This document shows, one piece after another, positions 20,878 to 48,557 of a stretch of DNA of 61,475 nt. The position numbers and the translations under genes were made by a program. The notes under the pieces were generated by a model. It was not told the DNA's origin. It saw nothing but the letters and a program-made list of their open reading frames with translations, and did not search any database. Each line of letters starts with the position of its first letter. Position 1 is the stretch's first letter. This DNA comes from Pseudonocardiaceae bacterium (GTDB taxonomy: Bacteria; Actinomycetota; Actinomycetes; Mycobacteriales; Pseudonocardiaceae): contig DATDHI010000209.1 in the NCBI GenBank assembly GCA_036521655.1, forward strand, positions 1 to 61,475, in the 5' to 3' direction.

Positions 20878-20930
20878 CCCAGGTGCGTGCGATGGCCCAG
20901 GTGCGTGCGATGACCCAGGTGCGTGCGATG
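20877..20930 (+). repeat. 18-bp tandem repeat x3 at the larB/larC junction
   Basis: The unit (A/G)CCCAGGTGCGTGCGATG occurs three times head to tail, each ending in an in-frame ATG (20892, 20910, 20928). It would encode TQVRAM x3 if translated from GTG 20874. Confidence 0.9.
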
Positions 20931-22166: not shown

Positions 22167-22193
22167 CCTCACCGGCAGCCCGAGAGGGAGGAC

Positions 22194-25744: not shown

Positions 25745-25759
25745 AGAGCAGGAGAGAGT

Positions 25760-29540: not shown

Positions 29541-29556
29541 TGCTCGAGCTTACCGT

Positions 29557-30783
29557 TCAGGCCGCCGGCACGGTGCTGGCCGCCCGCCCCAGCGGTGGCT
29601 GGAGCCGGAAGTAGGCATCACCGAGGATCCGGCGCTGCAGCAGGCGGCTGCGATGCATGGCCCGGTAAATGGAGGTGCGCAGCAGGACCGCGGGCGGGGC
29701 GTCGAAGGTGAACATCCACTCCTGGCGCAGCTGAAGGCGGCGGGCCTTCGCCACGTCGCCCTGCCGGATGCGCTGGAATTCCCGCAGCGCCGCAGCCATC
29801 GGCTGGGAGGTCCCCAGCGCGCCGTCGACCAGTTTCGCCAGGGTCACGCCGTCGATGAGCGCGTGGTTGACGCCCTGGCCGAGGATCGGCGTCAGCGTAT
29901 GCGCCGCATCACCCACGAGGACCAGGCCCGGCCGGGACCACTGCGGCACGACCGTGGTGAAGATGTCCAGCATCGAGGTGTCCTTCCACCCGCTGATATG
30001 CGTCCGGAGCGGAGCGCTCAGCTCGGGCGCAAGCTCGTCAAGCCGCGCGTGCAGCGCACCGATTCCCTGCCGGCGCAGGTCCTTGAGCCCGCCCTTGGGG
30101 ATGTTGAAGCCGACCCGCACCGAGTCCGGGTAGGTAGGGACGAACACCGCATGCCGGCTCCCGTTCAACGCGATCCGGTAGCTGCCGGCCCATTCCACCG
30201 GGCACGGCAGCCTCAACCACACCACATCACGCGCCAGGGGCAGCATCCGGTGCTGCAGCCCCGACATGGCGAGCACCTTGCTGAAGCGGCCGTCCGCACC
30301 GACCGTGAGCTCAGCGCGGACCTCCTGGGGACCTTCGGGCCCGAGGTAGCACACACCGCGCACCACACCGCCCTCCTCGACCAACCTGGTGACGTTGGCG
30401 GGCTGGCGCAGCTCGAACCCGCCGTGCTGAGCCGCCGCGCCGGCGAGCACCCGCAGCAGGGTGGGCTGCGGTATCTCCATCGGGTACGGGCAGGCGTAGG
30501 GAAAGACATCGAAGTCCACCCGCATCGCGGTCCGGCCACCCTCGGTCATCTCCAGCCGCCGGGTGACCAGCGCACCGATGGCCGTGATCTCCTCTAGCAA
30601 CCCCAACCGGTCCAGCAACCACACCCCATCCGGTGAGATCGACTCTCCACGGAAGGACCGCTGGAAATGTGGGGCCTTCTCCAGCACCACGACCCGCCGG
30701 CCGCGGCGGGCCAGGGCCAATGCGAGAGTGAGCCCGGCAGGTCCGCCGCCGACGATGCACACATCCACGCTGGTCACATTCAT
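29557..30783 (-). CDS. FAD-dependent monooxygenase-fold protein (group A, UbiH-like)
   Basis: Track ORF trimmed to ATG 30783 (ATGA overlap with the TEII stop). DVCIVGGGPAGLTLALALARRG, GADGRFS and LVLVGDAAHTLTPILGQG. Confidence 0.8.
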   Translation of the reverse strand: MNVTSVDVCIVGGGPAGLTLALALARRGRRVVVLEKAPHFQRSFRGESISPDGVWLLDRLGLLEEITAIGALVTRRLEMTEGGRTAMRVDFDVFPYACPYPMEIPQPTLLRVLAGAAAQHGGFELRQPANVTRLVEEGGVVRGVCYLGPEGPQEVRAELTVGADGRFSKVLAMSGLQHRMLPLARDVVWLRLPCPVEWAGSYRIALNGSRHAVFVPTYPDSVRVGFNIPKGGLKDLRRQGIGALHARLDELAPELSAPLRTHISGWKDTSMLDIFTTVVPQWSRPGLVLVGDAAHTLTPILGQGVNHALIDGVTLAKLVDGALGTSQPMAAALREFQRIRQGDVAKARRLQLRQEWMFTFDAPPAVLLRTSIYRAMHRSRLLQRRILGDAYFRLQPPLGRAASTVPAA

Positions 30784-31562
30784 CGCTGGCACCTCTCTTC
30801 TTCCCCGCTGGCCAGCGGGAGACTTAGTCGGCCGAAGCCCCGGGCCGCTCCCACTACCTCGCTCACCGCGGTGAGCAGGCCCGAGCGGAGTTCTTGCACG
30901 AGGAAGTGCCCACCGTCGAGCATCCGCAGCTCGAACCGGTTCGCGGTGTACCCGCGCCAGGCCGCGAGATGCTCGTGGCTCACGAGCGGGTCCCGCATCC
31001 CACCGAACGCATAGATCGGGCATGGCAACGGCCTGCCATGAGCCGGCACCCCGCTGCGGCATACGCTCAGGTCGTCGCGCAGCCGCGCCATCAGCGGGAT
31101 GAGCCACTCCGACCGCTGCAGCAGCAGTGCCGGCAGGCCGCCGATCTCATGCAGGCGCTGTGCCAGCTCATCGTCATCGACGGCTTCGGGCACCAGCGCG
31201 GAGCACTGTACGTGCGGCGCGGCACACGCGGTGGCCAGCAGCGCCTGAGGTGGGCGGCAGCCGGCGGCCAGCCGGTGTACCGCGACGCTGTAGGCGACCA
31301 GGGCGCCCATGCTGTGCCCGAACAGGATGTGCGGCTGCTCCAGAAGCTCGGCCAGCTCACCGGCCAGCAACCGGGTCAGCTCCCCCAGGTCGCGCTGGCG
31401 AGGCTCCCGGATCCGGCTCTCCCGGCCGGGCAACTGCACGGCGCGCACCTGCACTGGCGGCCCCGGACACAACGACCGCAGCGATCCCGGCCAGTCGCGG
31501 AACGCTGATGCACCGCCGCCAGCATGATGGAAGCAGACCAGCGTGGCAGGCTCGGGGGTCAC
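30780..31562 (-). CDS. type II thioesterase
   Basis: LVCFHHAGGGASAFRDW and the nucleophile motif LFGHSMGALVAY. Start chosen at GTG 31562 (GTGA overlap with the upstream stop). GTG 31571 is an alternative. Confidence 0.8.
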   Translation of the reverse strand: MTPEPATLVCFHHAGGGASAFRDWPGSLRSLCPGPPVQVRAVQLPGRESRIREPRQRDLGELTRLLAGELAELLEQPHILFGHSMGALVAYSVAVHRLAAGCRPPQALLATACAAPHVQCSALVPEAVDDDELAQRLHEIGGLPALLLQRSEWLIPLMARLRDDLSVCRSGVPAHGRPLPCPIYAFGGMRDPLVSHEHLAAWRGYTANRFELRMLDGGHFLVQELRSGLLTAVSEVVGAARGFGRLSLPLASGEEERCQR

Positions 31563-32671
31563 GAGGCCCACCGCAGCGCCCGCCGGCTGGCCGCGCGCAC
31601 GCCGAGCAGCGCACTGAGCCCGGCACGCACCGGTGCCCGGCACTGCCGCATCCGCAACAACGACCGCGCGATCCACAGCCGGATGTCAGGTAGATGCCCA
31701 GGCGAGCCGTGCACGTCGTCGAACTCCATCAGGTCCAGCCTGCGGACGCTTCGCGACAGCAGCTCCCACTCCTGCCGCGGGATGATCTCGTCACGAGCAC
31801 TGGCCAGGTACGCCACCGGGATATCGAGGCCGGCCAGTTGCCCGTCCCGCAGCGCAAGCTCCTCCAGGTGCTCGAACAGTCCCGTACGCGGCACCCCGGT
31901 CAGGTGCGCCAGGGTGCGGGTGGTGGTCTGCGGGAGCCGCTGCCACCAGCTGCGGTCGGTGAACAACGACCGCACCGGGGCGCCGAGGGTCACCACCCCG
32001 CGCAGCCGCGGGTCCTCCAGCGCAGCGCGGATCGCCAGGTGCCCGCTGAAGCTGATCGCGACCGCGTACACCTCCTCCACCGCGACCCGCGGGGCCAGGC
32101 CATCGAGCAGCGCGGGCAGCATCCGCCAGCTGCTGGCGCCATAGCGCAGCGTGTTCTCCCCCACCGACGGCATCTCGGCGACCACGACCGCCATCCCGAG
32201 CCGCCGCGCCGCCAGCAGGAACGGGGTCCACTGCTCCTTGATGCTGACGATCCCGCCGCTGACCAGCAACAGCGGGCGAGGTTCCCGGCTCAGGCCCGCC
32301 ACCAGGCACACCACCCGGCCACCGGCCACGGGTAGCTCCCACCGGTGGATCCCGGCCTGCCCCGCGCACCACTGCTGGAAGGACTGCACGCAGGCACTGG
32401 CGGCGCGCACCCGAGCGGGGCCGTCGGGGTACGGGAACCGGGCCAGGTTGTAGTAGCGGCAGGCGGTCAGATACTGGCCTCGCTCGGCATGCCCAGCCGC
32501 CTCGGCACTCCACTCGGTGGGCCAGCATCCGGGGCCCTCGCCATCAGGGCGGTGGATACGCGCCAGCACCTCCCGGCAGCGCGCCGGCGTGATGCCCTGA
32601 GCGCGCGCGTGCAACAACACCAGATCGGACAACTCATCCAGGTAACTCTCCTCGACACGGGACAACGCCAT
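31559..32671 (-). CDS. alpha/beta-hydrolase (FrsA-like; Agg5/ChlD4-type tetronate elimination enzyme candidate)
   Basis: Track ORF trimmed to ATG 32671 (TGATG overlap). 370 aa with YAVAISFSGHLA, a GxSxG-like nucleophile elbow. Its position in the FkbH/ACP/FabH-like/E2-like cassette supports the assignment. Confidence 0.7.
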   Translation of the reverse strand: MALSRVEESYLDELSDLVLLHARAQGITPARCREVLARIHRPDGEGPGCWPTEWSAEAAGHAERGQYLTACRYYNLARFPYPDGPARVRAASACVQSFQQWCAGQAGIHRWELPVAGGRVVCLVAGLSREPRPLLLVSGGIVSIKEQWTPFLLAARRLGMAVVVAEMPSVGENTLRYGASSWRMLPALLDGLAPRVAVEEVYAVAISFSGHLAIRAALEDPRLRGVVTLGAPVRSLFTDRSWWQRLPQTTTRTLAHLTGVPRTGLFEHLEELALRDGQLAGLDIPVAYLASARDEIIPRQEWELLSRSVRRLDLMEFDDVHGSPGHLPDIRLWIARSLLRMRQCRAPVRAGLSALLGVRAASRRALRWAS

Positions 32672-33495
32672 CACACCCTCGCCGCGGTCCGGTGCGCAGC
32701 GACGCCGACGCACCAGCGGCGGCGCACGGTGGCGGTGGCGTAGTGCCAGCCAGCGCCAGCGGGCGGGGCGCTGACCACACGGGTTTCCTCGACCCGGAAG
32801 GGCAGCGCGTGCAGGTCCACCCGCAGTCCCTCGCCCAGCGCCTTGGCGTGGGCCTCCTTCAGCGTCCACAACCGGACCAGAGCGCGATGACGGTCGACCT
32901 CGGGCAGCCCCTCCAGCCAGCGGCGTTCGGAGTCGCCGCAGGCGAGGCGATCGATCCCGGTCGCGAGCAACGGCCGGTCGGCCTCCTCGACGTCCACCCC
33001 GATCCGGCCGCGCCGGCTGACCCCGACCACCAGCAGGTCACCGGTGTGGCTCAGGCTGACCTCGGCATCGGGGCCTCGCGCCACGTAAGGCCGGCCGGTC
33101 CGGTCGGCGCCCAACCGCACGGCCGACGGGCGGACACGGGGTGCATTGACACCGGGCGCCATCGCCAGCACCGCCTTCATCAACCGCCGGGAGGCCACCA
33201 GGCGGCGGCGGAACTCCACGCTGTCCGACCGCTGGTACCGCCGGTAGCTGTCGTCCAGCAGCACGCGCAGTGCACCGGCAGCCGGTGGCTGGTCGGCCCA
33301 TGCGGCGACGAACGCGTAGACCACCACGTGGCCGCGCCGGTGCAATTCCCGCGCTACCCGGGCCCACCGCGTGGCAGCCTGCGGGCGCAGCGGGCCGTGC
33401 GGGCGAGCGGCGAAGGCCTCACCGGACGGAGGGTTGGTCAGCCCGCTTGGCCGGTGCGGCAGACGAAGCACGTGCGGGGTCATCGACGAGGTCAT
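32671..33495 (-). CDS. Sfp-type 4'-phosphopantetheinyl transferase
   Basis: RIGVDVEE and WTLKEAHAKALGEG. The start is uncertain, since the longest ORF overlaps the upstream gene by 77 nt. Confidence 0.8.
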   Translation of the reverse strand: MTSSMTPHVLRLPHRPSGLTNPPSGEAFAARPHGPLRPQAATRWARVARELHRRGHVVVYAFVAAWADQPPAAGALRVLLDDSYRRYQRSDSVEFRRRLVASRRLMKAVLAMAPGVNAPRVRPSAVRLGADRTGRPYVARGPDAEVSLSHTGDLLVVGVSRRGRIGVDVEEADRPLLATGIDRLACGDSERRWLEGLPEVDRHRALVRLWTLKEAHAKALGEGLRVDLHALPFRVEETRVVSAPPAGAGWHYATATVRRRWCVGVAAHRTAARV

Positions 33496-34267
33496 CGAGC
33501 TCCTCCAAGGTCTGCTTGAGGTCGGCGAGCACGTCGGCGGCCAGTGCCCCGTCCAGCACCCGGTGGTCGAAGGTCAGCGACAGCGGCAGCAGCGGGGCGA
33601 CGCACACCTGCCCGTCCCGCACCACCGCGGCGTCCCAGATCTGGCCGAGACCGACGGTGACAGCGGTACCGCCCGAGGAGAAGAACCGGCCGACGGGGCG
33701 GTGGCCCAGTGAGCTGACCGCGACGGTGCCCATGCTGGCCTGCCGCCGGCCCAGCCGGCAGCCCAGCCCGAACGCGAGCCGGCCCACTGGCCACGGCAAT
33801 CGCTGCAGCAACCGGACCCGGCGTAGCTCGGGGATCTCCGCCACCGCAGAGTCGCGCAGCCGGTCCACGGTGCGCTGGATCTCCGCCAGGCTCGAGGCGT
33901 GCACCGCGGGCAGCACCACCGCCAGCACGGCGCGCTGACCCTCGCTGATCTTGTCCAGGGTCAGCTTCGCGTCCACCGAGGCGTACCTGACGATGCGCGG
34001 CACCAGCCGGCCGCCATAGGCGGCGTTGGCGTCAGGATGGCGGAGCAGCACCCGACCGACCGCGGCGAGCACGTAGCTGACCACCGAGTACCGCCGGCAC
34101 CCAGCGGCACCGCCGAGGGCAGCGCCGCGGTGCGCCAGCAGGCGGGTCATGTCCACCTCGGTGTCCAGGTAGACGGGGCTGGCGGCGTGCACGAACCGCA
34201 GGAAGTGCAGGGTGTGCCTGCGTTGCGCCGGCACCCGGCCCGCCTCGTTGCCTGTGGGGCGGTTCAT
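33419..34267 (-). CDS. 2-oxoacid-dehydrogenase E2-type acyltransferase (Agg4/ChlD3-like)
   Basis: ATG 34267 has an ATGA overlap with the ACP stop. 282 aa with the catalytic motif LSLTFDHRVLDGA. Confidence 0.8.
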   Translation of the reverse strand: MNRPTGNEAGRVPAQRRHTLHFLRFVHAASPVYLDTEVDMTRLLAHRGAALGGAAGCRRYSVVSYVLAAVGRVLLRHPDANAAYGGRLVPRIVRYASVDAKLTLDKISEGQRAVLAVVLPAVHASSLAEIQRTVDRLRDSAVAEIPELRRVRLLQRLPWPVGRLAFGLGCRLGRRQASMGTVAVSSLGHRPVGRFFSSGGTAVTVGLGQIWDAAVVRDGQVCVAPLLPLSLTFDHRVLDGALAADVLADLKQTLEELDDLVDDPARASSAAPAKRADQPSVR

Positions 34268-34488
34268 CGGGTCACCAGGACGCCGTGCACCTGGCGCAGG
34301 CTGCGGGACTCCAGTAGCTGCGGTACCGGCAGCCGGGCCCCGACGCTGCCCTCCAGCGCGGTCAGCAGCTTGAGCAGGTGCACGGAGTCCCACGCCACCA
34401 GGTCGTCGAAGTCGGTGTCGAGGTCTGCTGCTCCCAGCGGCAGACCCACCTCTGCCTGCACGAGGGTGAGGAAGTCGTCGATGCTCAT
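34264..34488 (-). CDS. acyl carrier protein (glyceryl-carrier candidate)
   Basis: ATG 34488 has an ATGA overlap with the FkbH stop. 74 aa with the phosphopantetheine site LVAWDSVHLLKL. Confidence 0.8.
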   Translation of the reverse strand: MSIDDFLTLVQAEVGLPLGAADLDTDFDDLVAWDSVHLLKLLTALEGSVGARLPVPQLLESRSLRQVHGVLVTR

Positions 34489-36380
34489 AATCCCGGCCAA
34501 TCGGACGTGAGGCTGATGTGGCTCACCGGTGCGGGCAGCCTGGACAGGTCGTGCTCGTAACACTCGGTCCCCGAGGCGTCCATGCCGCGGTCAGCGAACC
34601 CGTGCTGCCGGTACAGCTCACGGACTTTCTGGTTGCGGGCGCCCGGGCGGTAGCGTCCGCGCACCGCAACGGCTCCCACCCGCTGCGCGCCGCTCAGGAT
34701 CGCGTTCAGGCAGGCCGATTCAATCCCGCGTGCCAGCACCCGGCAGGAGAGCAGGAAGTTCTCGATATCGAGCACGTCGCCCTGCCAGCGCGCGAACACC
34801 GCGCCGGTGGTGCCGTGGGCGCCGAACCGGTCCGCGCAGCGGACCGCCAGCACCAGCGTGCCCGCCTCGCCCAGCATCCGCCGCACCGCGGGGCCGTCCA
34901 GCCGCTGGGTGGTCAGGTTGAACCGGTTGGTGCGTTGAGTGAGCTGCGCGAGCCGCGCCACGTCGGCCGGCGACGGCCGGAACAGCTCCACGGTCGTGTG
35001 CAGCTGCGCCAGGTAATCCGTACCCGTGCCCGCCCCGGCCCGGCAGTGCCGACGGCGGCCCTCAGCGCGGTATCTCGCCGTGCGAGCCAGATCCTCCTCG
35101 GTGACCTCCTGGGTGGCGAACCACCCATCGAGCAGCAGACGCTCGGAGTGCAGGGCCGGCTCGGCCCTTTCGATGTCGATCACCGCCACCTCGGGCAGCT
35201 CGGCGCGCACCATGTCGCGTTCGACGGGGTTGTCGTCGACGAAGACCATGCTGTCGACGCCGATTCCGAGCCTCTCGGCGAGGCGGGAGATGTTGACGGG
35301 TTTGTGCTCCCAGTTGGCGACGATCGCGACGAAGTCGTCCTCTGCCAGCGCCAGCCCGGGCATGGCGTGCAGCGCCTCGCGGACCGCGGCGTCGTCGTTC
35401 TTGGAGCAGACCGCCAGCAGGGCTCCCTGGGAACCGAGCTGCTTGACCACCCGCTGGAAGGCCTGGAAGGCCGCACCGCGGTAACCCCCGGAGGCCTCCA
35501 GGCCGTCCACCCCGTCCTCGGCGAGGACCCCACCCCACAGCGTGCCGTCCAGGTCCAGCACTAGGCACTTACGGGTCCGACCACGCACGCTGCACACCAG
35601 GTGGCCGACCTCCCGGGCGAGGCGGTGGAGCAGCGGGTCCGAGAAGCACACCCTGGCGTAGGTGGCGACGCGGGGGTCGTAAGCCCGCGGGGTGTCGCAG
35701 ATCAGCGGCTCCAGGTCGAGTATCACCATGCCGGGCCGCTCGCCCAGATCCAGCAGGTCGGCGTTGAACCGGCGCCAGGCCGCGCCCAGCGCTGCCCGGG
35801 AGCGGTAGTCGACCAGCTGGGCGGCCCAGTGCGCCGGCAGCGGGACGGTGGTGCACACCAGCGTTCCTGGCCGGTGCTGGGCCTGAGCGATCTGCGCCAC
35901 CAGTGCCGACGTCTCCTCCAGTACCGCGATCACCTCGGGGACCGTCCACGGCGTGGGGAGCTGGTCGAACACGATGTGGGCGTCGAGCAGGCAGAGGGTG
36001 ATGTCCGGCGCGCACCGGGACAGTTCGCTGTGCGGGTCGGCCAGCTCCACCGCGTACTGGCCGAAGGCACCGACCTGGGTGCGCAGCAGGAAACCGTGCC
36101 GGGCCAGGTGTGCTGCGAGCGGGGCCAGGATCGGCTCGACCGTGCAGCTGCCAGTGACCGCGATGGTCACCACCGGGGTGCTGGGGTGGGCGGCGAGTAC
36201 CTCCCCGGCGTCCAGCCGGGCCAGCACCGCCCCGGCGCGGTGCAGCCCGGCGTCGTCGAGGCCGGCGAGCAGCCCGCGGACCTGCGGGTAGGCCTGTGCC
36301 AGCATCCCGGTTGCCAGCCAGGTTCGCAGCTGGACGGCTGTAGTCTCTATGGTTTCTGCAGGCAGAGCGGTCATGACCAC
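34485..36380 (-). CDS. FkbH-like glyceryl-S-ACP synthase (HAD-IIIC)
   Basis: 631 aa with CLVLDLDGTLWGG, LLAVCSKNDD, VFVDDNP and a C-terminal GNAT-like part. Confidence 0.85.
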   Translation of the reverse strand: MVMTALPAETIETTAVQLRTWLATGMLAQAYPQVRGLLAGLDDAGLHRAGAVLARLDAGEVLAAHPSTPVVTIAVTGSCTVEPILAPLAAHLARHGFLLRTQVGAFGQYAVELADPHSELSRCAPDITLCLLDAHIVFDQLPTPWTVPEVIAVLEETSALVAQIAQAQHRPGTLVCTTVPLPAHWAAQLVDYRSRAALGAAWRRFNADLLDLGERPGMVILDLEPLICDTPRAYDPRVATYARVCFSDPLLHRLAREVGHLVCSVRGRTRKCLVLDLDGTLWGGVLAEDGVDGLEASGGYRGAAFQAFQRVVKQLGSQGALLAVCSKNDDAAVREALHAMPGLALAEDDFVAIVANWEHKPVNISRLAERLGIGVDSMVFVDDNPVERDMVRAELPEVAVIDIERAEPALHSERLLLDGWFATQEVTEEDLARTARYRAEGRRRHCRAGAGTGTDYLAQLHTTVELFRPSPADVARLAQLTQRTNRFNLTTQRLDGPAVRRMLGEAGTLVLAVRCADRFGAHGTTGAVFARWQGDVLDIENFLLSCRVLARGIESACLNAILSGAQRVGAVAVRGRYRPGARNQKVRELYRQHGFADRGMDASGTECYEHDLSRLPAPVSHISLTSDWPGL

Positions 36381-37388
36381 TCACACCCCTTCCACCGCGA
36401 ACCCGGTCCGGATCCATTTGCTCGACTCGATGGCGATGCCCAACGCCCGCTGTCCCGGCCTGATCCGCTGGGCGAGCAGGTCCAGCTGCACGAAGGGCAG
36501 TGCGTTGGCGTTGTTGCCGGTATCGGCGACACAGCTGACTTCCTCGGCGGCGTCCACCCCGAGCGCCTTGACGATGCTCGCGGTCATCCGGCCGGACAGC
36601 TGCGGCGGAAGCAGGTAGGCCAGATCCGCCATGGACCATCCGGTGCCCTCGAGCAGCAGGCGCAGGACGTCCTTGGCCATCGGTGGGACGCGCCGCTCGA
36701 TCGCTTTGTAGTCTTCGTGCACGGCCTGCTCGCCGGTGCCGGCGCCGGCGACGTTGAACCAGTTGACGACCTGGCCGGGCGGGCAACCGAGGCCGACGAA
36801 GTCGTTGACCACCAGCCGCAGCACCATGCAGGGCCGCACCTCATCGGGGGTGATCACAACAGCGCCCGCGCCGTCTCCGAAGATCACATAATTGACCAGC
36901 TCGGGGGCGGACAGTGCCGCGAAATCGCGCGCCACCAGGTGCTTGGAGCAACTGTCGGCGCCGATGACCAGCCCGGTCCGGCCGGTGGACTCGACGATCG
37001 CGGCCGCGACCTGGAGCGCTGCCACCGCGCCAGCGCAACCAGACTGCAGCTGGTAGGTGGGGACCTCGTGGATACCGAGTGCCTCGGCGACCAGGTTGAC
37101 CGTGGCCGGCATCAGGTGATCGGGAGTGGCGGTGGACAGCACCACGAAGTCCACATCGTGCGGTTCCAGGCCGGCCCTGGCCAGCGCCTGGCCCCCGGCC
37201 TGGGCGCCGAGGTCGGCCAAGGTGTGGGTGACCCGGCCGGTGGCCAGCTCGACGGCGAGGTAACGCTGCCTGGTGCCGATGAACGCCTCGATCCAGGCGG
37301 CGCTGGTGCCGAAGTGCTCGGCCATCGTGTCGTTGCCGATAGGGTCGTTGGGCAGCGCTGTCCCGGTCGCAGCGAGGTACGTGGTCAT
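36381..37388 (-). CDS. FabH-like KASIII (tetronate-forming RkD/Agg1-type candidate)
   Basis: 335 aa with active-site Cys in LQSGCAGAV and Asn in DTGNNANALPF. The HQAN His position reads LLPPQLSG. ATGA overlap with the PKS stop. Confidence 0.8.
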   Translation of the reverse strand: MTTYLAATGTALPNDPIGNDTMAEHFGTSAAWIEAFIGTRQRYLAVELATGRVTHTLADLGAQAGGQALARAGLEPHDVDFVVLSTATPDHLMPATVNLVAEALGIHEVPTYQLQSGCAGAVAALQVAAAIVESTGRTGLVIGADSCSKHLVARDFAALSAPELVNYVIFGDGAGAVVITPDEVRPCMVLRLVVNDFVGLGCPPGQVVNWFNVAGAGTGEQAVHEDYKAIERRVPPMAKDVLRLLLEGTGWSMADLAYLLPPQLSGRMTASIVKALGVDAAEEVSCVADTGNNANALPFVQLDLLAQRIRPGQRALGIAIESSKWIRTGFAVEGV

Positions 37389-40354: not shown

Positions 40355-40623
40355 GAGGCTGCCTGCTCGTCGTCGGAGAGCTTCCCGTGCAGGTGACCGG
40401 CCAGCGCCGTGACGGTCGGGTAGTCCCAGGCCAGGGTGGGCTCGACGACCAGGCCCAGGTCGTCCTCGATCTCAGCGCACAGGGTCAGCGCGTACACCGA
40501 GTCCAGGCCGTACTCGGCCAGTGGGCGCGAGGGGTCGATCTCGGCAGGGTCGACCTTGAGGTATGAAGCCACTTTCCCGGTCAGCCATCGCCCGACGCTG
40601 GTTGGGCTGGGAACCGCTGTCAT
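40351..40623 (-). CDS. acyl carrier protein (starter-acyl carrier candidate)
   Basis: EYGLDSVYALTL is the phosphopantetheine site. ATG 40623 was chosen because AGGAGG lies 8 nt upstream, whereas ATG 40629 is only 2 nt from it. Confidence 0.8.
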   Translation of the reverse strand: MTAVPSPTSVGRWLTGKVASYLKVDPAEIDPSRPLAEYGLDSVYALTLCAEIEDDLGLVVEPTLAWDYPTVTALAGHLHGKLSDDEQAAS

Positions 40624-40660
40624 GATCATCGTCCTCCTGGTGTCGGGCTCGGCCGCCGGA

Positions 40661-42397
40661 TCAGGCCGCGCCGGGCAACGTCCGGGACACGAGCTCGTCG
40701 CTCAGCCCGAAGCCGCGGCGCTCGCCGGCCCGGCGCAGCAGCTCGGCGTACAGAGCGTCGTCGAGTTCGGTGGGCACTGGCGCCGGGTGCCTGCCGATGC
40801 GGTGCAGCAGCCGGCTCAACGCGGCCTGCAGCCAGGCTGTCCCGGCTGGACCGAGCTGCCCGGGGTGGTGCGTCCACACTCCAATGCAGGCCGCAGCCGC
40901 GAGCAGCGTCGCGTAGCGGTCGGTCAGCGCCAGGCTGGCCGGGCCGGCGAGCACACCGCGCTCGCCGGGCGGGATGCCGGCCGCGTCGCGGCTCAGCTCG
41001 CGCATCGCCACCACCAACTCCGCAGCGAGGGCCCCCAGCCCGGCTTCCCCACCGTGCTCGGACCGCATGGTGTCCACCGCCGCAGGCAGGGCGGCCAGCA
41101 GCGGGTCGGGCTGGGGGTTGCCCATGGGGCTGGTCGGCCCGAGCTGGTCGGGTTCCCACGGCGGCACCGGTCCGCTGGGGTCGAACAGCTCCGGTGGGGC
41201 CTCGGCAGACTCCGGCAGCGCCCGCATCAGCCCTGGCAGCTGCCGCAACACGGTCAGCTGGGAGGGCAACCCGCCGCCGAGCACGATGCCGAGCGCGGGC
41301 AAGTCGCGCATGTGCTTACCGAACACGGCGTGCTCACCCTCGCGCAGGTAGCACCTGGCGCCGAGCACGACCGCCAGGTTGTTGACCGCTTCCTCCAGCA
41401 TCAGCGGCACCAGATACTTGGTGGCGGCCGAGTACACGTCGGCGTTCACCGGTAGCAGGTGCACTGCTCGGGCCGCGGCCGTGACCAGGCAGTCGGCGAT
41501 CAGCAGGTCGGTGAACGCGCTGGCGAGCACGGCGCGGGCGTGCGAGAAGTCACCCACGCAGCGCCCGTACAGCCGGCGGGCTACCGCGAACCGGAGCACG
41601 GTGAACAGCGCGCCATCCACCATGCCCAGCCCGATGCCTGCCGCCACGCAGCGGCTGACCGGCAAGGATGGTCGTGCGACCGGCATGCCCTCACCGACCA
41701 TGCCGATCATGGCCTGCTCGGGCACCGGGCAGCTGTCGAAGGAGAGCCCGCCGATCTGGCAGCCCCGGATCCCGTCGGTCCGCCAACGGGGCAGCCGGCT
41801 CAGGCACCCGGCCGGCAGCTCGGCCAGCTGGACCAGGAGCAGGGAGTGGCTGCCACCGGACCTACTGTCCCCGATGCCGGCGACCACGACAGCGGCCTGA
41901 GCCCGGCCCGCGTTGTTGATCACCTCCTGGCGGCCGGTGAGCCGGATTTGCGGCCCGTGGCGCGCGGCGCGCAGCGCGGGCTGTCTCAAGTCCGGGCCGA
42001 TGGTGAGCTCGTGGTGTGCACCAGACACCTTGCCCCCGCCCGGTCCCCCGGCCAGTAACAGCTCAGCCAGGCGCTTGCGAGCGACCTCAGAGTCGCTCAA
42101 CCACACGGCGCTGGCCGCCATGAAAGAGTCGACGCCGTAGCCGACCCCCAGCGCAGCGTCCCGGCGGAACACCGGGCGGAGCCGGCGCACCAGTGCGTCG
42201 GTCGACTCGAGGCGGCCGCCCAGCTCGCGAGGCACGAATTCGGCGTTGGCGTTCCAGCCGTCCAGCAACCGCTCGCCGGCCGCGAAGAGCTGGCGCCGCT
42301 CGTCGTCGGCCATGATCGCGGCATGGCCGACGGGGTTGTCCGGCTGGTACGGGTCGCCGAACAACGTCTCCAGGCAAGGCGATGATTGCACGGCCAT
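40661..42397 (-). CDS. acyl-CoA/ACP dehydrogenase-like protein, apparently lacking the catalytic carboxylate
   Basis: Track ORF trimmed to ATG 42397 (TGATG overlap). 578 aa, colinear with the upstream ACAD. The catalytic-base position (canonical YEGT) reads IVLGGGL. Confidence 0.7.
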   Translation of the reverse strand: MAVQSSPCLETLFGDPYQPDNPVGHAAIMADDERRQLFAAGERLLDGWNANAEFVPRELGGRLESTDALVRRLRPVFRRDAALGVGYGVDSFMAASAVWLSDSEVARKRLAELLLAGGPGGGKVSGAHHELTIGPDLRQPALRAARHGPQIRLTGRQEVINNAGRAQAAVVVAGIGDSRSGGSHSLLLVQLAELPAGCLSRLPRWRTDGIRGCQIGGLSFDSCPVPEQAMIGMVGEGMPVARPSLPVSRCVAAGIGLGMVDGALFTVLRFAVARRLYGRCVGDFSHARAVLASAFTDLLIADCLVTAAARAVHLLPVNADVYSAATKYLVPLMLEEAVNNLAVVLGARCYLREGEHAVFGKHMRDLPALGIVLGGGLPSQLTVLRQLPGLMRALPESAEAPPELFDPSGPVPPWEPDQLGPTSPMGNPQPDPLLAALPAAVDTMRSEHGGEAGLGALAAELVVAMRELSRDAAGIPPGERGVLAGPASLALTDRYATLLAAAACIGVWTHHPGQLGPAGTAWLQAALSRLLHRIGRHPAPVPTELDDALYAELLRRAGERRGFGLSDELVSRTLPGAA

Positions 42398-44148
42398 CAC
42401 CGCAGCTCCCCATCCGGTTGCGGGCTGGAGAACAGCGACGGCGCCACTCCGCTGGCCACCTGCCGTCCCAGCACATGCAGCAGCACGTCGTGGGGCACCC
42501 GCTGGATATGCGAGGAATCGCCCAGCGCGACGAGCACCCGGGACAGGCACGCGTGCAGCCATCCGCCGTGGCACCACAGTGCAGCGGTCACACTCCCGCG
42601 CCGGGCGGCTGCGTCCCGGTTGCGCAGCCACAACAGCAGCGCGGCCGCGCCCGCCATGGCAGTGGCGAGCCTGCCAGCGAGATCGAAGGCGACCGGCGGC
42701 ATGTCGAGGCGGGCCGGCGGAAGCTGGTCCATCAACCGGTGCAGGGTGCCGACCGCGGCATCTAGGCGGCGCGCGGCGTCGGCCACGCTGTCCAGCTCGG
42801 GTTCACTACGGCGCAGCGCGGTGAGCTCCTCAACGGCCGCGGGGAGCGCCAGCAGCAGGCTGCAGCCGCGCGTGGCCACCAGCGAGAGCCGGCCGAGGTC
42901 ACCGTCGGGAAGATTTTGCGACAGCTCGCAACAGGTGCGCAACCCGGCCGCCGGCGGCCGGCCAGCCTCCCGGGCACGGACCAGCAGCGGGAACTGGCCG
43001 ATCAGAGTGGTCAGGTTGACCAGAGTGTTGCCGTCGAACAGAGACACGATCCGGTGGTCCCGCTCTACCTTGCCGAACATGCCCCCCTCGGGGCCGCCGG
43101 CCAGCAGGACGCGGGGGCCCAGCAACCGTCGCAGCCGCGCGATCATGGCCTCCGCGCGGACCGGGAGGACGTACTTGATCGCCGCCGCGATCACGCTTAG
43201 CTCCGGGGTGAGGGTCTGGATCGCGCGGCCCGCGACGACGCAGAATGCCTCGGCCAGCAGGTGGTCGGCGTAGCACTCGGCCAGCGTCGTGGCCATCCAA
43301 GGCGCCTCGAGCAGGCAGCACCCGGAGACCTCCCGGCGATCGGCGACCCGCATCGCCAGCCGCAGTGCGTGGTCGGTGCCGCCCACCGACAGCGCGGCGC
43401 ACAGCGTCCGGGTCAGCTGCAAGGCCTTGAGCACGGTCTCCAGGCCGCTGCCCTCCGGCCCGATCATGTTGGCACTGGTCACCTTCACGCGTTCCAGCCG
43501 GAACCCGCTGACGTCCACTCCCCGGATGCCGTGGGTGGGCACCTTGGGCAGCCAGCGCACGCCGCCAGCCGGTACCCGGGCCTTCTCGACGAGGAACAGG
43601 CTGAAGCCCCGGGGACCGCCCTCGTCACGGGTCCTGGCCAGCACGCACAGTGTGCTGCTGCGGATGGCGTTGTTGATCAGCCACTTCTCGCCGGTCAACC
43701 GGTACCCAATGCCGGTCCGGATGGCCCTCACCTCGCCCGCCAGCAGGTCGCTGCCGTGCTCCCGCTCGGTCAGCGCCCACGCGACCGGCTCGCCCGCGCC
43801 GATGATCGACGCCAGCCGGAGCCCCTGCGCGGCGTTGCCGGCGACCCAGACACACACCGCACCGAGGTAGCTCGCGCTGTGCCCGATCGCCACGGTGAGG
43901 TCGCGGCGGGCCAGCGCGCGCACCAGTTGTATCGAGGTGTCGTAGTCGGCCAGCCGACCGCCGTGGCGGGCCGGCACGTAGTAATGCTGCAGGCCGAAGT
44001 CCTCCAGCTGGCGGCAGATCTCGGCCGGGAACTGTTCGTCATCGTCCAGAGCGAGGCAGCGCCGGTAGCTGAAGACCGTCTGCGGGTCGCTGGGATCACC
44101 GAGGTGATGTTCCAGCCGATGCACCTCGGCCAGCGCAGGATAGGGCAT
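42397..44148 (-). CDS. acyl-CoA/ACP dehydrogenase family protein
   Basis: 583 aa with ALTEREHGSDL, LTGEKWLINNA and GPEGSGLETV. The catalytic-base position reads SLFDGNT (Asp instead of Glu). Confidence 0.8.
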   Translation of the reverse strand: MPYPALAEVHRLEHHLGDPSDPQTVFSYRRCLALDDDEQFPAEICRQLEDFGLQHYYVPARHGGRLADYDTSIQLVRALARRDLTVAIGHSASYLGAVCVWVAGNAAQGLRLASIIGAGEPVAWALTEREHGSDLLAGEVRAIRTGIGYRLTGEKWLINNAIRSSTLCVLARTRDEGGPRGFSLFLVEKARVPAGGVRWLPKVPTHGIRGVDVSGFRLERVKVTSANMIGPEGSGLETVLKALQLTRTLCAALSVGGTDHALRLAMRVADRREVSGCCLLEAPWMATTLAECYADHLLAEAFCVVAGRAIQTLTPELSVIAAAIKYVLPVRAEAMIARLRRLLGPRVLLAGGPEGGMFGKVERDHRIVSLFDGNTLVNLTTLIGQFPLLVRAREAGRPPAAGLRTCCELSQNLPDGDLGRLSLVATRGCSLLLALPAAVEELTALRRSEPELDSVADAARRLDAAVGTLHRLMDQLPPARLDMPPVAFDLAGRLATAMAGAAALLLWLRNRDAAARRGSVTAALWCHGGWLHACLSRVLVALGDSSHIQRVPHDVLLHVLGRQVASGVAPSLFSSPQPDGELR

Positions 44149-44151
44149 GGC

Positions 44152-45873
44152 TCAGCCCACCGTTCCGGTGGCCGGGACCCGCTCGTCCGTCAGCTCGGAC
44201 AGGCCCCCGTCGATAAACCGCTGGCACATGGTGCGGCGCTGCACCTTGCCGCTCGTAGTCCGGGACACCGTGCCGGGCCTGACGAACACCACCCGGGACA
44301 GATACAGGTCGAACTCGGCGCGGATGCGCGCCCTGACCGCTGCGGCCAGCTCGGGCAGCAGGATGCCGCCAAGTTGACTGCTCCGCACCTCCTGCACGAG
44401 CACGACCGGCCCGCCGGTCGCCTCGATCGTGAAGGCCGACGCCATGAGCAGTGCCGGGTGCAGGCCGGCTACGGCGCGCTCGAGGTCCTGCGGGTACAGG
44501 TTGCGGCCGTTGACGATGAGCATCTCCTTGATGCGACCGGTGACGTACAGCTGGCCCTCGAGCACCGCGCCGAGATCGCCGGTGCGCAGGAAGCCGGTCC
44601 GGCCGTCCACGGTGGCCGCCCGGAAGGTCGCCGCCGTCAGCTCGGGCTGGCGCCAGTAGCCCGCCGCGACACTGCTACCCCGCAGCCAGATCTCCCCGAC
44701 GGCACCGTCGGGAAGCACCTTGTGGCTGGCCGGGTCGACAATCTGGACCTCGGGATCCCCGCTGACCGGTCCGCTGCTGACCAACCGGCATCCAGATGTC
44801 CCCGACGGCGGCTCCACGAGCCGGTCGCGGTGCAGCGCCGCTGCATCGACGCCCCTGCTGACGACCCCTTGCCCAGCCCGACCGGTCACGTACAGCGTCG
44901 CCTCGGCGAGCCCGTAGCAGGGCACCAGCGCTGTGGGGCGCAGCCCAGCCGGCCCGAACCGAGCCAGGAACGCATCCAGAGTGTCTGCGTGCAATGGCTC
45001 CGCGCCATTGAGCATCGTGGTCATGCAGGATAGGTCCAGGCCCGCGAGCTGCTCGTCGGTAATCCGGCGGATCGCCAGGTCGAAGGCGAAGTTGGGTGCC
45101 ATCGTCGCGGTGGCTCGTAACTCACTGATCGCCTGCAGCCAGCGATATGGTCGCTTCAAGAAGTCGACCGGCGACAGGATCCCCATGGTGCAACCGGCGA
45201 ACAGGGCTTGCAGCCCTCCGATCAGCCCCATGTCGTGGTAGTGCGGTAGCCAACTGACGATCACCGAGTCCGGGCCGGTGGCCAGCGCCCGGCTGATCAA
45301 CCGCTCGTTGTGCAGCAGGTTGCCCCAGGTGATCACCACCCCTTTGGGTTCGCTGGTCGACCCGGAGGTGTACTGCAGCAGCGCCACGTCATCCGGTGAG
45401 TGCCGGACTGGCGGCGACCAGCCCGGGCTCTCGGGTAGTTCCGGGTCATCGGTGCTCTGGCAGCGCAGCAGTCCGGCCGTCCGGGCCCACCTCGACACCG
45501 AAAGGCATCTCCCCTCGGTCAGCACCAGGCTCGGTGCAGCGTCCGCGACGATCCCGGCAAGCCTGCCCACCCCGCGCCCATCGGCCTCCGGTAAGGGTGC
45601 GGGCACGGCGACCATGCCCGCGTACAGGCAGCCCAAGAGCCCGACCGTGAACTCCAGCCCTGGAGGGTGCAGCAGCAGCACCCGGTCTCCGGCGGCGGCG
45701 TCGCGTTGCAACCGGGCCCCGACCCGGCCGGCGCGGAGACTCAGTTCCCGGTAGATCAGGGAGGACCGGCCCACCTCCGGCCTGGGCTCCCGCAGGTGGA
45801 TCAACGCCGTCTTGTCGCCCTGCCTCACGGCCCACTGCTGGACGATCTCGACGAAGTCACGCTGCGGTTCCAT
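44152..45873 (-). CDS. fatty acyl-AMP ligase (FAAL/FadD-type adenylating enzyme)
   Basis: Track ORF trimmed to ATG 45873 (RBS GGGAGG). LQYTSGSTSEPKGV, FLRTGDLG and SGKVQR. It heads an operon with carrier proteins and no CoA-related genes. Confidence 0.8.
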   Translation of the reverse strand: MEPQRDFVEIVQQWAVRQGDKTALIHLREPRPEVGRSSLIYRELSLRAGRVGARLQRDAAAGDRVLLLHPPGLEFTVGLLGCLYAGMVAVPAPLPEADGRGVGRLAGIVADAAPSLVLTEGRCLSVSRWARTAGLLRCQSTDDPELPESPGWSPPVRHSPDDVALLQYTSGSTSEPKGVVITWGNLLHNERLISRALATGPDSVIVSWLPHYHDMGLIGGLQALFAGCTMGILSPVDFLKRPYRWLQAISELRATATMAPNFAFDLAIRRITDEQLAGLDLSCMTTMLNGAEPLHADTLDAFLARFGPAGLRPTALVPCYGLAEATLYVTGRAGQGVVSRGVDAAALHRDRLVEPPSGTSGCRLVSSGPVSGDPEVQIVDPASHKVLPDGAVGEIWLRGSSVAAGYWRQPELTAATFRAATVDGRTGFLRTGDLGAVLEGQLYVTGRIKEMLIVNGRNLYPQDLERAVAGLHPALLMASAFTIEATGGPVVLVQEVRSSQLGGILLPELAAAVRARIRAEFDLYLSRVVFVRPGTVSRTTSGKVQRRTMCQRFIDGGLSELTDERVPATGTVG

Positions 45874-46191
45874 GTGACCTCCCGCCTGTCCATAGACCAG
45901 CACTAGCCCAGCATCGGCCGGGCGTCTAAAGCCGATTGAGAAACGCGCCAAAGCACGGCTTATGCTGCGCTTAGGAAGAATCGAGCGACCGGCTCGTGGC
46001 GCCCGATGATCGCGCGAGGAGAGCTACACCAGACGTGCAGCGTGCGGCAGGTCGCGATACTCTTCGGCAAGCCTGGGTGGGAGGACGCGTCGCCGCGATG
46101 AGCTCTAGGGCACGACATGGAATCGTAACCATCTGGCGTGAGCGGACAGTTGGGCCCCGATAACTAGTGGTGAAGATTCGGGGCCTCTGGG

Positions 46192-47079
46192 GTGGGGGTC
46201 ACCGTGCAGTACGGCGTTTTGGGACCATTGATGGCCGTCAACGAAGACTCCGTCGCCGGGCCACGATCATGCTTGCCCAGCGCTGCGAAGAAGAAGGTGC
46301 TGCTGGCCACGCTACTGGCCAGGGCGAACCAGGTCGTACCGACCGGGCAACTGATCGAGGAGATCTGGGGTCCCGCGAAACCCCGCACTGCCAAAGCCGC
46401 ATTGCAGGTCTATGTTGCGCAGCTGAGGCAGGAGCTGGACGCCCCCGGCCAGGCTGGTGCGATCCGCACCGAAGAGGACGGCTACCTGGTGCAGGTCGGT
46501 GCGGAGGAATTCGACCTGTACCGGTTCGAGCAGCTGAGCGGATTTGGTCGTAACCATCTGCACAATGGCAGGTACACAGAGGCGTCCGTGGTGCTTTCAG
46601 CTGCGCTGGGGCTGTGGCGCGGCCCGGCCCTGCACGGTGTCGTATCCGGCCCCCTGTTGGGCATATTCGCCACCCGGCTGGACGAGATGAGGCTGGCCGC
46701 CCGCGAGATGTGTCTCGAGTCGGACCTGCACCTGGGCCGGCATCGCGATGTCGTCAGCGAGCTGTTCACGGTGGTCGCGGAGCACCCGCTGCAGGAAGCC
46801 TTCTGCCGGCAGCTCATGCTCGCGCTCTACCGCTCCGAGCGGCAGGCCGAGGCGCTACAGGCCTACCGGCGTACCCGCGACTTGCTCAACCGCGAGCTCG
46901 GCGTAGAGCCCGGGCGAGCACTGCGCCGGCTGCAGCAGGCAATTCTGACGGCCGACCGCAGCCTGGACTTCCACCCGCAGGCTGAGCCTGTTGGCCGCCA
47001 GTCCCGGGTCGATCCCAGCGGTTGGCCTCAGATGTCGACGCCGACCAGGCCCATCACCTCGGTGCGCCAGTCCTGGTAG
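46192..47079 (+). CDS. SARP-family transcriptional activator (OmpR-type wHTH + BTAD)
   Basis: VQYGVLGPLMAV, KKKVLLATLLARANQVVPTGQLIEEIWG, DLYRFEQL and QAEALQAYRRTRDLLNRELGVEPGRALRRLQQAIL. The start is GTG 46192 or 46204. Confidence 0.85.
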   Translation: MGVTVQYGVLGPLMAVNEDSVAGPRSCLPSAAKKKVLLATLLARANQVVPTGQLIEEIWGPAKPRTAKAALQVYVAQLRQELDAPGQAGAIRTEEDGYLVQVGAEEFDLYRFEQLSGFGRNHLHNGRYTEASVVLSAALGLWRGPALHGVVSGPLLGIFATRLDEMRLAAREMCLESDLHLGRHRDVVSELFTVVAEHPLQEAFCRQLMLALYRSERQAEALQAYRRTRDLLNRELGVEPGRALRRLQQAILTADRSLDFHPQAEPVGRQSRVDPSGWPQMSTPTRPITSVRQSW

Positions 47080-47594: not shown

Positions 47595-47872
47595 CGGACC
47601 TCCTCACCCGCGCTCACTCCGCTCCCCCGTCGGCGTGTCGTGCTCTCGTGCACGGTATGTCCGGAGGAGGTGCGCGGCGGTGAGCTGGGACCATCGTATG
47701 AGCCGCCGGCGGTGCCTGACGAGGATCCCGCGGGTTTGCCGGTGGCCGGTCCCCCAAACAGCCCCCAAACGACATCGGTGCGTCACCACGGGCTTGGCCG
47801 CGACGACTCCGGGTGAGATCCGCGCCCCACCCGAGGGGCACCCCACCCACGGGCTCGCCACACTTGTCGCCC

Positions 47873-48452: not shown

Positions 48453-48557
48453 TCACGGTTATCGCCGCGGAGACCCGTTGGCTAGCCCGTGCAGCGTCGC
48501 GCGCCGACTCGGAAGCGCACCGGGTTCGGCCCGAGGATCCGTCGCAGGGAGGAACCG

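Follow-up and report, generated by a model that had tools for sequence, protein, structure and literature searches.

We analyzed a 61,475-nt contig of a Pseudonocardiaceae bacterium (DATDHI010000209.1 in assembly GCA_036521655.1, referred to here as the window), and in particular a 17.5-kb island in which thirteen minus-strand genes run from 45873 to 29557 and a gene for a SARP-family activator lies upstream on the opposite strand. This region had been read, from the letters of the sequence and its open reading frames (ORFs), as a biosynthetic gene cluster for an acyl-tetronate (referred to here as the original prediction). We assigned genes by matching Pfam and NCBIfam profiles to the ORFs of the window and read catalytic motifs from the translations. 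For comparison, one genome per species was scanned with an alignment of the two acyl-CoA dehydrogenase-like (ACAD) proteins of the island as query, which returned 452 relatives, and the best 80 loci (L004-L083) were compared over fetched spans of mostly 10 kb on each side, a few contigs being shorter. Our data indicate that the island is probably a SARP-controlled operon for a lipid-tailed 3-acyl-tetronate.

The run of thirteen genes was recovered by ORF listing, a filter on codon-position G+C content, and the Pfam and NCBIfam profiles, and the divergent regulatory gene was recovered with it. In the direction of transcription the genes encode one fatty acyl-AMP ligase (FAAL), two ACAD-like proteins (ACAD1 and ACAD2), an acyl carrier protein (ACP1), a type I polyketide synthase (PKS), a FabH-like enzyme, an FkbH-like protein, a second carrier protein (ACP2), an E2-like acetyltransferase, a phosphopantetheinyl transferase (PPTase), an alpha/beta-hydrolase-fold lyase, a type II thioesterase (TEII), and an FAD-dependent monooxygenase. 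Nearly all junctions had been described as short overlaps, apart from two gaps around the ACAD genes. The 3-nt gap between FAAL and ACAD1 and the 31-nt gap between ACAD2 and ACP1 are present, and inspection of start codons placed ATGA or GTGA overlaps at ACAD1/ACAD2, PKS/FabH, FkbH/ACP2, ACP2/E2, PPTase/hydrolase, hydrolase/TEII, and TEII/FAD. The description did not hold at the remaining junctions. The PKS gene starts with TTG within a TTGA overlap, the FabH and FkbH genes either abut or are separated by 6 nt (FkbH start at 36380 or 36374), and the E2 and PPTase genes overlap by 53-77 nt, with a PPTase start that stayed ambiguous (33495, 33483, or 33471) after N-terminal alignment with orthologues. 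The longest ORFs of the E2-like and FAD genes are overcalls, with true products of 282 and 408 aa.

We found that the island has sharp borders. In three relatives that lack the cluster (L084-L086), the equivalents of the two genes that flank the island are only 74 bp apart, and nucleotide similarity between the window and these relatives ends exactly at 47028 and 29540. The 17.5 kb between 29540 and 47028 are therefore a clean insertion that replaced the native intergenic region of two adjacent genes. It follows that the cluster borders drawn in the original prediction are right by synteny, that the flanking genes are backbone genes rather than resistance genes, and that the last 52 nt of the SARP ORF are backbone DNA read antisense. 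Translational coupling and clean borders together argue for one functional unit. We found no tRNA, Rfam family, or integrase tied to the island.

At the left border lies a gene for an HhH-GPD base-excision protein (TIGR03252; 28974-29540, minus strand), which starts 16 nt past the stop of the FAD gene and is 86% identical over the 52-residue stretch covered by the loci of the relatives. We rejected this gene as a resistance gene since it is found in the relatives without the cluster and is absent from all cluster-bearing loci. In the relatives it is preceded by a 74-bp region with a GAGGAGG ribosome-binding site; the insertion deleted this region, and in the window the gene is preceded by the 16 nt at 29541-29556. 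Lying 16 nt past the FAD stop, the HhH-GPD gene may be read through from the operon. At the right border, a conserved hypothetical protein of 188 aa (47028-47594, minus strand) matches no Pfam family and shows 77% identity to the gene found at a distance of 74 bp from HhH-GPD in the relatives; it lies beside the SARP gene and is likewise a backbone gene.

The center of the island is a tetronate cassette, and all five of its predicted genes were found with intact catalytic motifs. Across the island, every catalytic motif that we checked is intact in the window and conserved in related loci, with the exception of the two ACAD-like proteins. The FabH-like condensing enzyme (RkD/Agg1/AbyA1-type; 335 aa; 36381-37388, minus strand; Pfam ACP_syn_III) matches PDB entry 5by7, whose identity was not established, with an E-value of 4e-97, compared to 5e-32 for the best ordinary FabH. 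It keeps the active-site Cys (SGCAG) and carries LPPQLSGR in place of the FabH His motif; the only match to its exact sequence was a 5-kb Logan contig. The FkbH-like glyceryl-S-ACP synthase (629 aa; 34485-36374, minus strand) scores 275 bits against NCBIfam TIGR01686, for which the cut-off is 146.65, and contains the DLDGT phosphatase motif (DxDxT) and an SCRV cysteine. ACP2, the putative glyceryl carrier (74 aa; 34264-34488, minus strand; Pfam PP-binding), carries its serine in a WDS motif and overlaps each of its two neighbors by ATGA. The E2-like acetyltransferase (Agg4/AbyA4-type; 33419-34267, minus strand; Pfam 2-oxoacid_dh, E 1.6e-19) contains FDHRVLDG, an HxxxDG motif that is conserved in the family, and matches the catalytic cores of E2 proteins in the PDB. 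Finally, the FrsA-like lyase (AbyA5/Agg5-type; 371 aa; 31559-32674, minus strand) matches the AbyA5 structures 4ywf and 5no5 with an E-value of 7e-88 over residues 13-356, and its motifs SFSGH, DEIIP, and DDVHGSP are conserved in the family. A review states that FkbH, ACP, and FabH-like genes occur in all sequenced tetronate clusters, and that acetylation and elimination by an Agg4/Agg5-type pair make an exocyclic methylene (PMC4979870). Given these motifs, the AbyA5 and 5by7 matches, an FkbH score above the cut-off, and this definition of a tetronate cluster (PMC4979870), we regard the tetronate assignment, made by homology, as well supported.

Upstream of these genes lies the set that was proposed to supply the lipid chain, and the FAAL, the free ACP, and the two ACAD-like proteins of approximately 580 aa are present with the expected domains. 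The FAAL (573 aa; 44152-45873, minus strand) contains an AMP-binding domain and a DIP2-like C-terminal domain. The NCBIfam fatty-acid--AMP ligase families gave the best E-values for this protein (1e-100 to 1e-119), yet its scores fall below their curated cut-offs (399 versus 775 bits). Its 15 best PDB matches (E 1e-134 to 1e-68) include every named FAAL (FadD23, FadD32, FadD28, and 3pbk), the rest being generically named, while non-FAAL adenylating structures reach 1e-42 at best and are at least 25 orders of magnitude behind. ACAD1 (583 aa; 42397-44148, minus strand) has a C-terminal extension of approximately 190 aa, matches the Pfam ACAD N, M, and C domains above cut-off, and matches ACAD structures in the PDB. 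ACAD2 (579 aa; 40661-42400, minus strand) matches the C domain with 43 bits, and its M domain remains below cut-off (24.8 versus 33.3 bits). The two align as paralogues with 30% identity and a common C-terminal extension, and they are members of the ACAD superfamily but not canonical ACADs. ACP1, the candidate carrier of the fatty-acyl starter (92 aa; 40351-40629, minus strand; Pfam PP-binding, E 3e-16), has a GLDS serine.

This arrangement has the FAAL-ACAD(s)-ACP order of the lipid-initiation cassette of lipopeptide clusters (PMC9113097), and on gene order we identify it as such a cassette. Friulimicin (delta-cis-3) and laspartomycin (delta-2) clusters contain one ACAD between FAAL and ACP, while those of taromycin and malacidin, with delta-2,4 lipids, contain two that are approximately 30% identical to each other (PMC9113097). 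The window shares its exact order, FAAL-ACAD-ACAD-ACP, and its degree of paralogue identity with the two-ACAD cassettes among taromycin Tar5/Tar6, malacidin MlcH/MlcI, rotihibin RthH-RthK, and friulimicin LipB (PMC9113097, PMC8552735). Related cassettes also exist apart from tetronate genes. Two loci that contain none (L014 and L032) carry the same cassette ahead of starter condensation domains and nonribosomal peptide synthetase (NRPS) modules, with 42-53% identity to the window. After the cassette, the Plantactinospora locus contains a free-standing condensation domain along with an ABC transporter, genes of the diaminopropionate type, and NRPS modules, and the Kitasatospora locus contains a condensation domain and NRPS modules along with an enoyl-CoA hydratase. 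Whereas lipopeptide cassettes hand their acyl-ACP to the starter condensation domain of an NRPS, the cassette of the window is predicted to hand it to a ketosynthase (KS). Indeed, a hand-over to a CIII condensation domain was not found, since the island contains no condensation domain and the gene after the cassette is the PKS.

The PKS (989 aa; 37385-40354, minus strand) is a single KS-acyltransferase (AT)-ACP module, as had been proposed, with Pfam matches to the KS, AT, and PP-binding domains only. Its motifs DTACSSS, EAHGTGT, NLSH, GHSVGE, HAFH, and YDS are conserved in the family, the Cys-His-His triad of the KS is intact, and Pfam detected no ketoreductase, dehydratase, or enoylreductase domain. 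The GHSVGE and HAFH motifs indicate an AT that is specific for malonyl units, in agreement with the original prediction, and a malonyl AT without reductive domains would therefore yield a 3-oxoacyl-ACP. The accessory genes that were said to complete the set were all found: a Sfp-type PPTase (approximately 33495-32671, minus strand; Pfam ACPS, E 1.7e-14), an editing TEII (260 aa; 30780-31562, minus strand; Pfam Thioesterase, E 1e-32) with a GHSMG motif, and the FAD protein. The phosphopantetheine serine is present in all three carrier domains.

The composition of the operon also bears on whether FkbH, its ACP, and the ACADs might make a hydroxymalonyl- or methoxymalonyl-ACP extender instead of a tetronate ring, an outcome that the original prediction had named as its own refutation. 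The methoxymalonyl pathway contains FkbH, a small ACP, and the ACAD-like FkbI, and this likeness speaks for an extender. That pathway also uses the 3-hydroxyacyl-CoA dehydrogenase FkbK and the O-methyltransferase FkbG, neither of which Pfam found in the island; the AT carries malonyl motifs; the ACADs travel with FAAL into NRPS clusters without FkbH; and a tetronate-type FabH-like enzyme stands together with an AbyA4/AbyA5-type pair. We therefore consider an extender pathway a weak alternative and extremely improbable.

We found that the tetronate reading applies to a family of loci and not to the window alone. Among the 80 loci, 52 contain a PKS and a FabH-like gene beside FAAL-ACAD-ACAD-ACP, in the same architecture and with 37-73% protein identity, and 35 contain, inside the span that was fetched, all nine main genes that were checked (ACP2, PPTase, TEII, and FAD excepted), while 23 contain no tetronate genes. 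ACAD2 stands beside ACAD1 in every one of the 80, with 43-55% identity, and ACP1 adjoins the ACADs in all but L034. The core order FAAL-ACAD-ACAD-ACP-PKS-FabH is kept among family loci, and the FkbH, TEII, and FAD genes move; Microbispora sp. NPDC049125 and Actinokineospora iranica each carry the same set of twelve genes in an unchanged order. Members occur in Streptomyces (S. scabiei, S. torulosus, S. neyagawaensis, and S. hygroscopicus), Kitasatospora, Actinokineospora, Microbispora, Actinocrinis, and Pseudonocardiaceae, including a metagenome-assembled genome (MAG). The cluster thus belongs to a widespread existing family and is not a one-off. Near-identity to a characterized cluster, the other refuting case named originally, did not occur: the best FkbH homologue is 57% identical, and therefore the window cluster is not a copy of any sequenced cluster, and no characterized actinomycete member was found in the open-access literature. 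As far as checked, the island combines known parts in a way for which there is no characterized actinomycete member.

The last gene of the operon encodes a class A FAD-dependent monooxygenase (408 aa; 29557-30783, minus strand; Pfam FAD_binding_3 and NCBIfam PRK06185) with intact GxGxxG, DG, and GDAAH motifs. Its AlphaFold2 (AF2) model has a pLDDT of 90.5, and Foldseek placed the flavin monooxygenase of Bacillus niacini first (crystallized with 2,6-dihydroxypyridine; TM 0.89), followed by PqsL, squalene epoxidase, and PnpA. By its modeled fold, the protein is a two-domain class A monooxygenase with a probable tailoring role, and we predict that it hydroxylates or epoxidizes the product, at a position that we do not assign. 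Of the 52 family loci, 29 contain a homologue, which frequently lies between the genes for the PPTase and the lyase, and relatives with 84-87% identity lie on other short contigs. Such homologues were considered as a marker of tetronate clusters and rejected as one, because the S. scabiei homologue belongs to a different cluster. This homologue (58% identical; L087, Streptomyces scabiei 87-22-like, 3.28-3.30 Mb) lies in a small cluster that also encodes two KASIII enzymes, a P450, an SRPBCC cyclase-like protein, an adenylating enzyme, an MMPL transporter, and a fusion of an ornithine-decarboxylase-like protein with a carrier domain.

Since FAD-dependent cyclases exist in tetronate pathways, the same protein could in principle act as a [4+2] cyclase of the PyrE3/Tsn11 type and give a spirotetronate or another Diels-Alder product, and the predicted product would indeed pair a 5-methylidene dienophile with a conjugated diene. 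Furthermore, AOC-like barrel proteins act as [4+2] cyclases in spirotetronate pathways, and Actinokineospora iranica has such a gene beside its cluster. There, a 128-aa AOC-like barrel protein and a 147-aa protein are encoded directly past the thioesterase gene (15476-16302 of the fetched locus, L003), and the window has no counterpart of them. The window contains no AbyU- or VstJ-like barrel cyclase gene, and its single PKS module, unlike the multimodular PKS that provides the distal diene in spirotetronate pathways, leaves no long tether between diene and dienophile. PyrE3 and Tsn11 have a three-domain fold of the PgaE/MtmOIV type; enzymes of this type rank low against our model, with MtmOIV at rank 22, and we rejected the FAD protein as a PyrE3-type cyclase on fold. 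Cyclization to a spirotetronate is thus a weak alternative, and we consider it very improbable.

Transcription of the operon would be activated by the SARP protein (46192-47079, plus strand), which shows the combination that defines the family, an N-terminal OmpR-type winged helix (Trans_reg_C, E 3.5e-10) and a BTAD domain (E 1e-48). Its true start is probably the GTG at 46204, judging from the sequence, and homologues with 35-49% identity are found in 12 related loci. The ORF continues for 52 nt (47028-47079) after the island ends, in antisense over the 3' end of the backbone gene, and its native C-terminal tail was thus replaced on insertion; both recognized domains are complete. The SARP gene and the operon diverge from a 318-bp intergenic promoter region (45874-46191), in which no sigma-70 consensus promoter or terminator stands out. 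This region contains a tandem 11-nt direct repeat, TAGACCAGCAC and TAGCCCAGCAT (45893-45914), at 20-41 nt upstream from the start codon of FAAL. With its 11-nt spacing the repeat recalls SARP binding sites; it consists of two short copies, is a weak match, and may be due to chance.

From these parts we infer a pathway, including its substrate, the order of its steps, how many double bonds are formed and where, and what the FAD enzyme does. The FAAL would adenylate a free fatty acid, of a chain length that we do not specify, and load it onto ACP1. ACAD1, which by analogy with lipopeptide clusters may be an acyl-ACP alpha,beta (delta-2) desaturase, would desaturate the ACP-bound chain at C2-C3, and ACAD2, if active, would act at C4-C5 as a gamma,delta (delta-4) desaturase, so that the starter would be a 2-enoyl or 2,4-dienoyl chain; alternatively, ACAD2 may be inactive in this lineage. 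The lone KS-AT-ACP module would add one malonate without reduction to give a 3-oxo-enoyl-ACP. In parallel, FkbH would turn a glycolytic C3 unit into glyceryl-S-ACP2, and the FabH-like enzyme would join the two thioesters by acylation and Dieckmann condensation into a 3-acyl-5-hydroxymethyl-tetronate. The E2-like protein would then acetylate the hydroxymethyl group, and the AbyA5-like lyase would eliminate acetate to leave a 5-methylidene tetronate, which the class A monooxygenase would hydroxylate or epoxidize and could also rearrange. The PPTase would prime the three carrier domains, and the TEII would clear misloaded ones. The product is thus a prediction, and a plain tetronate is perhaps not its final form, as the FAD enzyme could alter the ring.

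Several observations weigh against this pathway, and those that concern the ACADs also bear on the number of double bonds. The catalytic Glu of ACADs, at the position of either MCAD-E376 or IVD-E254 (the medium-chain acyl-CoA and isovaleryl-CoA dehydrogenases), is missing in both proteins, neither of which has a Glu at the helix-G position. ACAD1 has an Asp (FDGNT) at the MCAD position in every locus with the gene; across these loci FDGNT shows at most one conservative change, and HGSD and WLINNA show rare one-residue changes. In ACAD2 of the window the base position is a Leu, where 79 of the 80 loci have His and L034 has Asp, and a few residues further on a Cys that is present in all 80 loci is replaced by Ser; residues approximately 372-381 read VLGGG..S in the window and G-H-A-G..C in related loci. 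A compensated frameshift was considered as the origin of this odd motif and rejected, since codon comparison indicated point substitutions. A metagenome scan with ACAD2 found no close relative. Furthermore, rotihibin RthH-I-J-K has the identical order with two ACADs, yet its main lipid is cis-2-decenoate, with one double bond (PMC8552735).

Because ACAD2 of the window has lost the family-conserved His and Cys, the second desaturation may have been lost, and we regard this as a real doubt. If ACAD2 were inactive in this lineage or a non-catalytic partner of ACAD1, the chain would carry one double bond or none and would be 2-enoyl (or 3-enoyl), not 2,4-dienoyl. ACAD2 carries no carboxylate at either known ACAD base position, its GSD motif is degenerate, and its Pfam middle domain scores below cut-off, all of which fit this possibility, as does rotihibin. 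The taromycin and malacidin clusters point the other way, since two ACADs of the same paralogous types accompany delta-2,4 lipids there and one-ACAD clusters accompany one double bond (PMC9113097), and the retention of ACAD2 beside ACAD1 in all 80 loci suggests that it is under selection. On the same grounds, we downgraded a ChsE-like heteromer in which both ACADs carry out one desaturation (two-ACAD lipopeptide clusters give delta-2,4 lipids; PMC9113097), and we kept it as a rival given the ACAD2 substitutions and the rotihibin precedent. A chain with fewer than two double bonds is therefore a serious but doubtful possibility, and delta-2 desaturation by ACAD1 with delta-4 desaturation by ACAD2 remains the simplest reading by analogy. 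There is no mechanistic study of the lipopeptide ACADs to date (PMC9113097).

The pathway is also challenged by the comparison with a cyanobacterial relative, by the content of the island, and by the literature. The nostovalerolactone (nvl) pathway shares the tetronate cassette and ends in a rearranged, non-tetronate lactone (PMC9324945). The island contains no exporter or resistance gene, as the original prediction had remarked for the operon, and the organism is uncultured. Neither a characterized actinomycete cluster of this architecture nor the product of any family member was found in the open-access literature, subscription journals being mostly outside it.

Given the missing exporter, we also considered that the island may be an acquisition that is silent or in decay and makes no product in this host. 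The ACAD2 substitutions fall on family-conserved residues, and the SARP ORF, deprived of its native 3' end, continues into backbone DNA, both of which would fit decay. Yet each of the thirteen ORFs is intact, the genes are translationally coupled, catalytic motifs are preserved outside the two ACAD-like proteins, the DNA-binding and BTAD domains of the SARP protein are complete, and the relatives of the FAD protein at 84-87% identity suggest that the lineage retains at least that gene. We thus regard decay as a weak alternative and improbable, and favor a functional operon for a 3-acyl-tetronate.

We compared the island with the tetronate systems that it resembles. RK-682 has a saturated palmitoyl chain and keeps its 5-hydroxymethyl group. 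Agglomerin is not known to have a dedicated PKS, FAAL, or ACADs, and its 3-oxoacyl chain comes from primary metabolism. Abyssomicin is made by a multimodular PKS together with the AbyU cyclase and P450s. Like the predicted product of the window, RK-682 (rk, Streptomyces sp. 88-682) is a 3-acyl-tetronate formed by the FkbH-like RkE, the carrier protein RkF, and the FabH-like RkD from a once-extended fatty-acyl chain and glyceryl-ACP, with RkC carrying the beta-keto thioester (PMC4979870, PMC4659471). Compared by description, the window has in addition a pair of ACADs, a FAAL and an ACP as discrete proteins, the two enzymes for acetylation and elimination, and the flavin monooxygenase. The agglomerin (Agg1-Agg5, Pantoea agglomerans) and abyssomicin (AbyA1-AbyA5) clusters share the five-gene cassette with the acetyltransferase and lyase from which the 5-methylidene group arises (PMC4979870).

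The closest precedent, and the only characterized cluster that we found with this combination, is that of nostovalerolactone in Nostoc punctiforme, which contains a FAAL, an ACAD, a type I PKS, homologues of RkD/E/F and Agg4/Agg5, and flavin monooxygenases, and whose product bears an exocyclic methylene as well as a lipid tail (PMC9324945). In nvl one loading protein comprises both the FAAL and a single ACAD as domains, whereas the window has separate genes and two ACADs; nvl has four reducing PKS modules, and the window has one that is non-reducing. Furthermore, the cyanobacterial host uses two oxygenases, of the Baeyer-Villiger monooxygenase (BVMO) and MtmOIV types, and rearrangement turns the ring into a delta-valerolactone that is fused to an oxepane. 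Since the nvl ring is oxidatively rearranged, we are cautious in assuming a plain tetronate for the window.

This precedent raises the possibility that the same assembly line ends in a non-tetronate product, with the flavin monooxygenase driving an oxidative rearrangement or ring expansion as proposed for nostovalerolactone. Besides the FAAL-ACAD-primed PKS with its tetronate-type homologues and flavin monooxygenases in nvl (PMC9324945), such an outcome would be consistent with the presence of the FAD homologue inside the operon in more than half of the family loci (29/52) and with the fold of a class A monooxygenase that acts on rings of the electron-rich enol or hydroxypyridine type. In nvl, the candidates are NvlQ, a BVMO, and NvlH, an enzyme of the MtmOIV type, while the enzyme of the window is a UbiH/PqsL-like protein of approximately 400 aa with two domains. 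NvlH itself has three domains. In addition, 23 of the 52 family loci have no FAD gene in the fetched span, indicating that the core scaffold does not need the enzyme, and the 58% identical homologue of S. scabiei lies in an unrelated cluster. A rearranged end product is on balance unlikely, and we continue to favor the tetronate. In its most ambitious form, our reading would describe for the first time a large and conserved family of actinomycete lipo-tetronates in which a lipopeptide-style cassette primes a KS in place of the usual NRPS, the conserved FAD enzyme turns a 3-dienoyl-5-methylidene tetronate into an undescribed scaffold, and ACAD1 (Asp) and ACAD2 (His) form a new ACP-dependent delta-2/delta-4 desaturase pair; we hold this version tentatively and consider it more doubtful than not.

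If the assignment is true, the family would give access to small electrophilic lipid-tetronates that carry a conjugated enoyl chain together with an exocyclic Michael acceptor; of their relatives, RK-682 is a reported phosphatase inhibitor and agglomerin a reported antibiotic. The assignment would also mean that the loading and desaturating cassette of lipopeptides is a portable module able to prime a PKS, which is useful for lipid-tail engineering. No enzymology of the ACAD pair has been published, and so compact a system would lend itself well to such a study; through cultured members, among them Actinokineospora spp., Streptomyces scabiei, and Kitasatospora spp., the question can be tested independently of the uncultured host. 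We regard the finding as a solid genome-mining lead rather than a surprise, and it does not overturn current understanding.

Outside the island, the window DNA has a G+C content of approximately 70%, as does the window overall, except for a segment at approximately 11900-16000, where it falls to approximately 63%. This segment encodes a 418-aa HTH_31 protein and an unassigned 165-aa ORF, ends within a ResIII/DEAD helicase gene (15428-17176), and may be a second foreign segment. Among backbone proteins, a DUF4192 protein (54090-55124) is 80-86% identical to proteins of soil MAGs labeled Pseudonocardiaceae, and no exact-sequence record was found for IdeR and the DUF3039 protein. Close relatives (compared at L084, 17320-20243) have genes for a polyhydroxyalkanoate (PHA) synthase (PhaC) and an HTH_31 regulator and a 104-aa ORF between a D-Tyr-tRNA deacylase gene and a 186-aa gene, all three of which are missing from the window at 47595-47812. 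Upstream of the island, a plus-strand operon (18349-27334) that is unrelated to the cluster encodes a ferritin/desaturase-like protein, a 535-aa protein with an AIR carboxylase domain of the LarB type at its end, the nickel-insertion protein LarC, a 780-aa fusion of an NAD_binding_4 reductase and a HAD domain, a zinc alcohol dehydrogenase, and a LarA-N-like protein; from its gene content it looks like a nickel-pincer-cofactor enzyme system. The contig also contains two group 1/2 sigma-70 paralogues (4908-6473, 521 aa, and 48489-49532, 347 aa).

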